Shown piece after piece: positions 23,701-26,700 of a DNA stretch of 64,000 nucleotides. Every line of letters begins with the position of its first letter. Within the stretch, counting starts at the first letter, position 1. Origin of the DNA: a candidate division WOR-3 bacterium (lineage in GTDB: Bacteria > Hydrothermota > Hydrothermia > LBFQ01); assembly GCA_027050205.1 (NCBI GenBank), contig JALUCS010000097.1, positions 1 to 64,000 of the forward strand, in the 5' to 3' direction. The position numbers are program-made.

Positions 23701-26700
23701 ACGCCGGTTTACAGGGGACAGCACACCCAGCCCCCTCAACTCCAACGACCCTCCTCCCAGGACACATCCCGTTCCACTCAACAGCTTCCGTATATCACCG
23801 ATCCTTACGTCGCCTGTAAGATGGGGGAGTCAGACGCCGGGAAGGAGACTAGCGTCTGGGAAGAGAAGTGGTTTGCCTTAGGGTGTATCGTGGGTCTCTG
23901 CGTGGGACCCTTTGGCTACATCATCTCCTTATTCGTCAGAGTCCCTTCTCCTAAAGGTCCTTACGTCAATATGTCCCCTGCTGCGAGGAAACGCTACGAA
24001 AAGTGCTACAGGAGAAAGGGGAAGGAGAAACTCCAGGGGGCTGCTATAATGGGTACAACTTCCGCCTGCTTAATCCTTGGATTTCTGCTTAATCAGGCCG
24101 ATGAGTCGACTAGGGGGTCAGATATAAATATATCCTGCCCATCTCCTTCACCACCTCCTCCTGTAGTATCCTGCCCCTACTCATATACAGTTGGGAACCC
24201 CGGTAGTTTCGGTCTCCTAAGAGTTATCCCCGAACTTGAGCCGCCAGTTCGGCCACCAGTCAGGTATCGTAAGCAGCAGAGACCAACCCAACACCGAAGA
24301 TAACACCCGAATGCCATATGCAGGTAGGGGCGAGGACCCCCTTGCGGCAGCGATAAGCCCGCATCAAGCGGTATCTTCAAAAACCGGGGATTAAACCTCA
24401 AAAAGCTGGTAGTTAGACTTTAAAATCGTTATACGCCCTATTTTGAACGGTGTTGCTGCGGCCTATCTACGGAAAGTTGAAGCTGGATTTCGGGAAGTGA
24501 AATTGGCCGATACGAAACTTCGTACTGACGTTCATCGGGGATGCATTGCCCTAAATACCCAATGGGGGGTATCACACCGATAGAAGGATACTCAATTCAC
24601 CGTTTGAAATATATCCTCAAAAACTGAAATTTACTTTAAGTAATTAGAACACGATATTGCAAGGAACTTGCAGTCCGATGATGAAAATTGGTAATCCGTT
24701 CAAATTTTGATACCGAGATAAATTTTCATGCCGATGACTCCTCGGAGGTTGCAGCGTTCCATATGCCGAACACCCCGATGGGGAAGAGACAATATCAAAC
24801 AAAAAAATTGCGGGGGCGGGATTTGAACCCGCGACCTCCGGGTTATGAGCCCGGCGAGCTTCCTGGCTGCTCCACCCCGCGATTTGAGGAAACTATTATA
24901 AGGGGGAAAGGGGGGCGTGTGGGGAGGTTGTACCCGTCCTTATAATCCCCATCTTGAGAGTAGTAGTGGTCGTACCCACCTACAACGAGGCCGATAACAT
25001 AGCCGACCTGATAGCCGAGTTGCGCTCCGTTCGTATATTCGAACGCATAGTCCCCGACGTACTCGTAGTGGACGACAACTCCCCCGATGGCACCTGGAGG
25101 ATCGTTGAAGAGATAGGGAAGAGGGACCCGGCCGTCCATCTCCTCAAGCGTCCGGGGAAGATGGGCCTCGGTTCGGCCTACGTTGAGGGGTTCAAGTGGG
25201 CCTTGGAGCGGGGATACGACGTCATCGTGCAGATGGACGCCGACTTCTCCCACAACCCGAAGGACGTCCAGAAGTTGGTTGAGGCCCTCGCTAACTGCGA
25301 CGTTGTGATAGGCTCCCGGTACTGCAACGGCGTTAGCGTCATAAACTGGCCGATAAGCCGCCTCCTCCTCTCCTACTTCGCCAACCAGTACGCCCGTCTC
25401 CTGACCGGGGTAAAGATAAACGACCTCACCGGGGGTTTCAAGGCCTTCAAGAGGGAGGCCCTTGAGGCGTTGGACCTTGATAAGATAAAGTCGGACGGCT
25501 ACGCCTTCCAGATAGAGGTGAACTTCTACCTCTGGATGAAGAGGTTCAAGATGTGCGAGATCCCGATAGTCTTCGTTGAGAGGAGGGCCGGTAAGTCCAA
25601 ACTTAGCCGCTCAATCATATGGGAGGCCTTCTGGCTGGTACTCCGGCTGTTCCTGAAGCGGATAACCGGTAGGGTATGAGGTTCTACGAGCTGTTGAGGG
25701 TGGGGTACGGTGTCCTTGAGGAGGCCCTCACCTCCCTCCGCCGTAGGTTCCCACGAAGTAAGGTGGTCGTCTTCACGGGGGACGAGCTCTCCCTACCCTA
25801 CGGGGAGAAGGTGGCCGAAACCGTCCGCGGCACCCTCGTAGTTGGCGAGCGTTTCCCGGAGGGCGACGGGTACGACCTCGTCCTCGGCGTTGGGGGCGGG
25901 AGCGTGATAGACCGGGCGAAACTCTGGGCCTACGAGAGGGGGGTACCCTTCGTCTCCGTCCCCACGCTGGCCTCCAGCGATGGCATAGCCTCTCCGGTCA
26001 GCGTCCTGAACGGGAAGAGCCGCTTCCTCACCCTCCCCTACGGCGTCATCGTAGAGCTGGAGATAATAGCGAAGGCACCGAGGTGGAGCCTCCTCGCCGG
26101 CATAGGGGACCTCGTATCCAACCTCTCCGCCTCCCTGGACTGGGACCGCTTCCGGGAGAAATCAAGGGAGCCGTACTCACCGGAGGCCTCGGCCATGGCG
26201 AGGTTGGGGGCGGTCTCCCTCCTCTCCTCCCGCTCCCCTAACCCCCTTGAGGCGCTGGTGTGGGGACTCATCCTAAGCGGCCTGGCCATGAACGTAGCCG
26301 GCTCCTCAAGACCGGCGAGCGGTCCGGAGCATAAGGTGAGCCACGCCCTTGACTCCTTGGGCTACGGGGAGAAGCACGGGATACAGGTGGGCATCTTCAC
26401 CCCCCTGTTCCTGAAGTTGAACGGCTATCCGGCGTGGGAGGAGGTAAGGGAGTACCTTAAGGGGGTAGGGCTTCCGGAGTACGTCACCCTCACCGAGGAG
26501 GGGGCAGTTGAGGTCTTCAGTAAGGCCTCGGAGACCAGGCCCCACAGGTACACCGTCCTTGAGGAGGTTGGCTGGGAGAAGGTCCTTGAGGAGGCCATCA
26601 GGCTGGGTTTCGTCAGGATAGTTTAAAATCGGCCTTAAAATACTACCGTTATGAGGGACCTCTTAAAGAGGATAAGGTCTCTGGCCTTCGTGGCCACGGT

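Follow-up and report, generated by a model that had tools for sequence, protein, structure and literature searches.

An ether-lipid gene set with a G1PDH-like dehydrogenase of a bacterial clan, beside acyl-lipid genes, in a WOR-3 bacterium

Introduction

The 64,000-nucleotide stretch of a WOR-3 genome analysed here (the window) encodes a dehydrogenase resembling glycerol-1-phosphate dehydrogenase (G1PDH). This raises the question whether the bacterium supplies its own sn-glycerol-1-phosphate (G1P) for isoprenoid ether lipids while making acyl lipids on G3P. According to the accessible part of Villanueva et al. (PMC7852524), GGGPS and DGGGPS of Cloacimonadota made ether lipids in E. coli and neither egsA nor araM was found in those MAGs, in agreement with the genome-wide survey's note, which had named G1PDH as the step missing there. 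A 2025 paper states in its accessible part that a hybrid membrane has so far been found in no organism (PMC12042123).

The accessible material of Coleman et al. 2019 (PMC6431249) names all three core genes in Bacillus, Halanaerobium, Streptomyces, Chitinispirillum and Chitinivibrio. The survey's note had been unable to read the WOR-3 entries in Table 1 of that study; its supplementary trees, as far as accessible, include WOR-3 for GGGPS and DGGGPS, whereas none of the G1PDH rows bears a WOR-3 label, and 'TA06 bacterium 32 111' appears in all three. Both WOR-3 GGGPS and DGGGPS and the three-gene sets of other bacteria have been published before. The TA06 bacterium, we assume, may now be filed under WOR-3. 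A word search of the accessible text of a WOR-3 isolate paper (PMC12285271) and two genome papers (PMC4791363, PMC11696919) revealed no mention of lipids, and the openly accessible literature covered (Villanueva supplements excepted) reported neither a WOR-3 G1PDH nor WOR-3 ether lipids.

Results

Four ether-lipid genes were located as intact ORFs where the survey's note had placed them. In the window, the dehydrogenase (25676-26626, plus strand, 316 aa) is predicted to convert DHAP to G1P, and a geranylgeranyl reductase family flavoprotein (404 aa) is encoded at 43188-44402, also on the plus strand, with an alternative in-frame ATG at 43179. GGGPS (C7:6023-6703) and a DGGGPS-type UbiA protein (C83:57244-58035) lie on other contigs of the same assembly. 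The four genes are unlinked to one another in this genome, on contigs of 64-105 kb, and their GC3 of 0.75-0.84 matches that of housekeeping genes (0.81 for gpsA), which argues that they are not stray DNA. The GGGPS start overlaps the stop of the upstream gene in 12/12 host-family loci (C7:4620-6703 in this genome); we take this upstream gene to be NuoN-like. A transposase-like helix-turn-helix ORF lies just 3' of the DGGGPS gene (G000 C83:58421-58825; L002:8422-8826). The bacterial acyl-lipid set that the note had reported alongside was likewise found: gpsA (C35:1783-2790), plsX (C93), plsY (C15), a cdsA-like gene beside uppS (C83), and, on the plus strand of the window, acpP (27851-28105; TIGR00517 over cut-off) and fabF (28102-29346; TIGR03150 627.6 bits, over cut-off). 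Two plsC-like genes and fabH are also present.

The fixed partner of the dehydrogenase is a polyprenol-phosphate glycosyltransferase-like GT2 gene (24954-25679, plus strand, 241 aa; PF00535, with AglJ/PpgS-type models below cut-off). The pair occurs in 9/9 host-family loci, and the GT2 stop overlaps the dehydrogenase start (ATGA). This link is restricted to the host family, being found in 0/10 class loci and in none of 20 phylum loci. The survey's note had also pointed to acpP-fabF nearby. Their closeness holds, with a single gene between the dehydrogenase and acpP: a plus-strand ORF of 248 aa (26651-27397) without matches in Pfam or NCBIfam. The arrangement is conserved in 0/8 host-family loci (8 of the 11 other host-family genomes were compared) and is found in this genome alone, and we rejected it as functional evidence. 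Upstream, a lower-GC stretch with small ORFs at 22587-24882, adjoined by a tRNA-Met gene (24807-24882, minus strand), is a possible integrated element.

Other gene orders were also seen. In family f5, the dehydrogenase gene closes a same-strand cluster that also holds ispA and fabH in 2/2 loci (L081:818-4774, L086:2820-6828), which unites isoprenoid, fatty-acid and backbone genes; the genes between ispA and fabH are presumably DUF212-like and membrane protease-like. In two genomes of one genus, the GT2-dehydrogenase pair is preceded by plsY at a distance of about 3 kb (L073:2827-3468, L074:3042-3698). In a setting of glycosyltransferases, genes of the same clan as the dehydrogenase have a nucleotidyltransferase on one side and CDP-alcohol phosphotransferases on the other in Streptomyces, Kerfeldbacteria and several families of WOR-3. 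This uncharacterised cassette, with one or two phosphotransferases, was seen in WOR-3 loci L232-L236, L247 and L249 and also in L106 and L174; in Streptomyces it is placed between idi and hpnCDE. A locus from a record titled Bacteroidaceae bacterium (L157) showed an archaeal-looking gene order round an EgsA-like gene and is probably a mis-binned archaeal contig.

The dehydrogenase scored 195.8 bits on the G1PDH model NF002022, under its equivalog cut-off of 413, and only 60 on the glycerol dehydrogenase model; the survey's note had given the same scores and the same shortfall. NF002022-passing rows of the canonical archaeal clade reach 454-550 bits. Alignment showed that GGG73-75, D79, D102, S106, D145, H219, H223 and H234 are kept. 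We take these to be the metal and substrate residues of G1PDH, with positions taken from the alignment to named EgsA rows. The loop SSRPASGxEH (211-219) is common to the dehydrogenase, all named archaeal EgsA rows and the AraM-like rows, and is absent from the GldA row. Among solved chains, 4rgq, 4rfl, 3ce9 and 5fb3 are nearest; the note had listed three of these correctly and omitted 3ce9, a protein of clostridial origin that bears the name glycerol dehydrogenase. The predicted model (pLDDT 96) gave a TM of 0.87 to the M. jannaschii G1PDH (4rgq), 0.83-0.86 to 3ce9, 0.69-0.79 to GldA-type proteins and 0.67 to AraM, and its short N-terminal domain resembles that of the M. jannaschii enzyme. Metal and substrate residues, loop and fold are those of a G1PDH with EgsA/AraM-like function, and the fold (by the match to 4rgq), metal ligands and loop are shared with archaeal EgsA and B. 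subtilis AraM. In contrast to these, the dehydrogenase sits on a separate branch, and changes at Pro217 and adjacent to Arg82 were found solely in the host family.

In a tree of 41 rows, a larger set having been cut by 36 rows for run time, the dehydrogenase, on a long branch, falls with 23 further bacterial proteins; 15 archaeal EgsA and two AraM-like rows form the other side of the split (support 100/98). A quick tree of 66 rows concurs in placing it outside the EgsA and AraM group; an AU test did not reject forcing it into the archaeal group (p-AU 0.11). Within the bacterial part, the window protein forms a branch with copies from families f5, f7 and f13, and most cassette copies fall elsewhere (88/91, not starred). 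By sequence, the dehydrogenase is a G1PDH-like member of a separate bacterial clan and not an archaeal EgsA, and the designation 'archaeal-type G1PDH' in the survey's note was too strong for a protein that falls below the EgsA cut-off and outside EgsA and AraM in two trees. This clan corresponds to the bacterial G1PDH clan with Streptomyces, Clostridium, Kerfeldbacteria and Coprothermobacter in the accessible part of Coleman et al. (PMC6431249). The literature examined contained no assay of any clan member. Active site, fold and gene co-occurrence suggest that the dehydrogenase likely functions as a G1PDH.

GGGPS scored 166.6 bits on TIGR01769, over the cut-off of 161.55, and carries D15, Y119, Y163, E165 and T217, the group II residue set named in PMC9385802; the assignment to group II is borne out by both model and residues (Y/Y/E, D and Thr). 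The closest solved structure is that of FjGGGPS from Flavobacterium (4jej, group IIb), and the named near relatives among the 120 homologues listed are FCB-type bacteria. For the C83 UbiA protein, the best models are DGGGPS-type, at scores below cut-off (138.6/269 and 114.8/296); three named archaeal DGGGPS are likewise under those cut-offs. It alone among seven UbiA proteins of the genome groups with archaeal DGGGPS, and the WOR-3 proteins of this type cluster with these (94/96, not starred), apart from MenA, CyoE and DPPR synthase. N51, D55, D59, Y114, K119, D171 and D175 match MjDGGGPS, and the best structure is 6m31. Four of five catalytic Asp are kept; the important Asp180 of MjDGGGPS is Ser168 in motif 3, a Ser found in the host family and f5, the Asp being retained in other families.

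The reductase scored 220 bits on TIGR02032, over the cut-off of 158.8, with DGGGPL equivalogs below cut-off, and its best solved match is the T. acidophilum DGGGPL reductase 3oz2 (E 7e-57). It is the only copy in the genome (a single blast hit), and the MenJ model scored weakly (68 of 700). An orthologue lies less than 250 bases directly upstream of GGGPS in 30/57 non-family genomes, a linkage that ties the window reductase to ether lipids more than to quinones. Family membership and linkage to ether-lipid genes are both those of a DGGGPL reductase.

For the isoprenoid supply, the MEP genes dxr, ispDF, ispE, ispG and ispH are present; dxs was not located among the MEP genes sought, and a motif search of the genome revealed no mevalonate markers. 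A short-chain prenyl synthase (C125:6165-7043) passes an FPP-synthase cut-off and not a GGPP one (CrtE 263 of 460). With Phe at -5 and a FARM insertion, a mixed pattern for product length, it may stop at C15. As the survey's note had stated, no CarS homologue was detected (PF01864, 0 matches in this 93.5% complete genome; control 6/14); the accessible part of PMC7852524 describes CarS as replaceable by CdsA in other bacteria. The one CDP-alcohol phosphotransferase found (C40:11676-12257; L225:2677-3258) is closest to archaetidylinositol- and phosphatidylinositol-phosphate synthases, below cut-off, and tblastn of the genome revealed no PgsA-type gene. Since relatives carry 1-3 such transferases and the genome is not complete, a further one may have been missed. 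An ino1 gene at C74:2579-3697 was recovered by motif search and TIGR03450 (517 bits, cut-off 638), PF07994 having missed it. This transferase, together with ino1 and the lack of a pgsA match, suggests that inositol lipids may be dominant in the genus. A motif-based, not exhaustive search for tetraether or membrane-spanning synthases gave 11 CxxxCxxC ORFs, with no such synthase among them (10 ORFs scanned).

The distribution given in the survey's note, with an orthologue of the dehydrogenase in 11/11 other host-family genomes and 0/7 of the sister family, was reproduced. A family-specific acquisition was nevertheless rejected, because 60/161 WOR-3 genomes have G1PDH-like, GGGPS and DGGGPS genes together. 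Across the 161 genomes we counted the G1PDH-like gene in 67 (69 before two weak matches, G041 and G133, with E about 1e-43 and frames of 477-499 aa, were dropped), GGGPS in 108, DGGGPS-type genes in 105 and the reductase in 65. Both synthases occur in 99 genomes, and 40 of the 60 with the G1PDH-like gene in addition also have the reductase. In these counts related genomes are not independent, thresholds vary by gene, and search models A1-A3 were built in part from genomes later counted. Each of the 67 genomes with a G1PDH-like gene also encodes GGGPS (62) or, in the remaining five, the nucleotidyltransferase cassette, which indicates that the dehydrogenase is kept only alongside a plausible consumer of glycerol phosphate. 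Where neither synthase is present (47 genomes), the dehydrogenase was found in five, each time beside the cassette transferase, and the reductase in none. It is not required for having both synthases, since 39/99 such genomes lack it. Five genomes of genus g4 in the sister family (G013, G014, G015, G017, G018) encode a strongly diverged GGGPS (28-32% identity), with no DGGGPS, reductase or G1PDH-like gene found; here the pathway is possibly decaying or re-used.

The gpsA gene was detected in 140/161 WOR-3 genomes and in 0/14 of one family, f17 (G046, G052, G058, G063, G068, G074, G079, G083, G087, G091, G095, G104, G112, G120; five genera, 85-100% complete). G1PDH-like, GGGPS, DGGGPS and plsY genes are present in all 14; of five genomes tested, all have plsX and the ketoacyl synthase gene fabF and none has glycerol kinase (glpK). 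No GlpA/D passed cut-off in f17, and the clan enzyme is the sole glycerol-phosphate source found there. In 4/4 loci of one genus (L306-L309), plsY abuts a MerR-like gene that in another family stands after gpsA; most f17 genomes hold two plsY copies. The f17 dehydrogenase is no more than a distant relative of the window copy, f17 GGGPS falls below cut-off, and 9/14 of these genomes also have the cassette-type nucleotidyltransferase. PlsY and PlsC accept G1P in vitro, according to the accessible part of PMC13400652. The simplest reading of a family with the three genes and plsY and without gpsA is that there the backbone comes from the clan enzyme, and this pattern supports G1PDH activity for the bacterial clan.

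Discussion

An FCB-type ether-lipid set with its own candidate G1P source, distributed phylum-wide, is real and well supported. The survey's interpretation stands in part: the gene set and its likely purpose are upheld, now with phylum-wide support, and the archaeal label of the dehydrogenase is not. We give about an even chance to the reading that the set makes a saturated isoprenoid diether on G1P beside acyl lipids, giving a predicted mixed membrane. In this pathway, the window dehydrogenase would reduce DHAP to G1P, as its active site, fold and co-occurrence suggest. GGGPS, by family membership and by the G1P/GGPP activity published for group II relatives, would form the first ether bond, and the C83 UbiA protein, which clusters with archaeal DGGGPS, probably the second. 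Saturation would fall to the reductase, given its linkage to GGGPS in relatives. CDP activation is likely by CdsA instead of CarS. An inositol head group is likely, since Ino1 is present and no CDP-alcohol phosphotransferase other than the AIP/PIP-synthase-type one was found. The isoprenoid would come from the MEP pathway, and G3P acyl lipids would be made alongside. We infer every activity in this scheme, and the membrane itself, from the observed genes, residues, distribution and linkage.

Alternatively, the dehydrogenase might serve cell-surface glycans with glycerol or glycerol-phosphate substituents, as in cassettes of NTP-transferase, Fe-ADH and CDP-alcohol transferase, with GGGPS and DGGGPS acting separately as in Cloacimonadota. 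The cassette context in Streptomyces, Kerfeldbacteria and 5/5 WOR-3 carriers without GGGPS speaks for this, as does the host-family partner, a GT2 and not a lipid gene in all nine loci. We presume pneumococcal Gtp1 to be a member of the bacterial G1PDH clan that reduces dihydroxyacetone. A Streptococcus pneumoniae sequence falls in the same clan (PMC6431249, Fig. S1, in the accessible material), and pneumococcal gtp1-3 have been linked to glycerol-2-phosphate (PMC1391919). However, the cassette nucleotidyltransferase, present in 24/161 WOR-3 genomes, is found in 0/8 of the host family, which has GGGPS, and is missing from 45/60 three-gene genomes. Its best match in this genome reaches only 1e-10, and a search of the genome revealed neither a cassette-type CDP-alcohol transferase nor a partner phosphatase. 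The grouping of the window protein off most cassette copies and the lack of gpsA in f17 also count against a role in glycans, which we consider rather unlikely.

In all host-family loci the dehydrogenase is translationally coupled to a polyprenol-phosphate glycosyltransferase, which would also suit a minor specialised lipid, in which the G1P isoprenoid ether is not bulk membrane but, for example, a glycosyl carrier or anchor for the coupled GT2, like the PcrB lipid of Bacillus. The lack of CarS and the altered motif 3 of DGGGPS are consistent with such a role, and B. subtilis has its G1P ether lipid in small amounts only, by the accessible part of PMC13400652. We nonetheless hold it unlikely, as the GT2 link ends at the host family and a dedicated reductase travelling with GGGPS fits a structural lipid. 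It is highly improbable that the genes degrade or remodel archaeal lipids from neighbours, catabolism having been raised for FCB bacteria without G1PDH in the accessible part of PMC6431249, or that they are mis-binned archaeal DNA: they sit amid bacterial housekeeping genes with consistent GC3 and recur in 11/11 host-family genomes, the nearest named GGGPS relatives are bacterial, and the Cloacimonadota homologues yield ether lipids in E. coli (accessible part of PMC7852524).

Among the closest parallels to this gene set is the Ca. Cloacimonetes/FCB set, which shares, by the accessible account (PMC7852524), the group II GGGPS, DGGGPS-type UbiA protein, geranylgeranyl reductase and MEP pathway, the lack of CarS and a full gpsA/plsX/plsY set. 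In contrast to Ca. Cloacimonetes as described there, this genome has a G1PDH-like gene, GGGPS and DGGGPS are unlinked, and the head-group enzyme resembles AIP/PIP synthases, no PgsA having been detected. For the reductase linkage and the gpsA loss seen here, the accessible part of Coleman et al. (PMC6431249) contained no discussion.

The mixed-membrane claim for Cloacimonadota has two weak points: the stereochemistry of the backbone is not known, and no culture is available (PMC7852524, accessible part). A pure culture exists for WOR-3 (strain sy37 / NBRC 116057; PMC12285271, accessible part), and this culture, a candidate G1P enzyme with ether synthases across the phylum and a family without the G3P enzyme bear on both points. 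A tentative and somewhat doubtful extension is that WOR-3 spans the lipid divide, with lineages such as the present one making a heterochiral membrane by means of a G1P dehydrogenase of their own, and f17, after losing gpsA, building all its lipids, including acyl esters, on G1P via a G1P-accepting PlsY. If true, a natural mixed or G1P-based bacterial membrane would matter for the lipid divide, for the origin of eukaryotes and for the use of archaeol as a marker of archaea, and would provide a first function for the large bacterial G1PDH-like clan.
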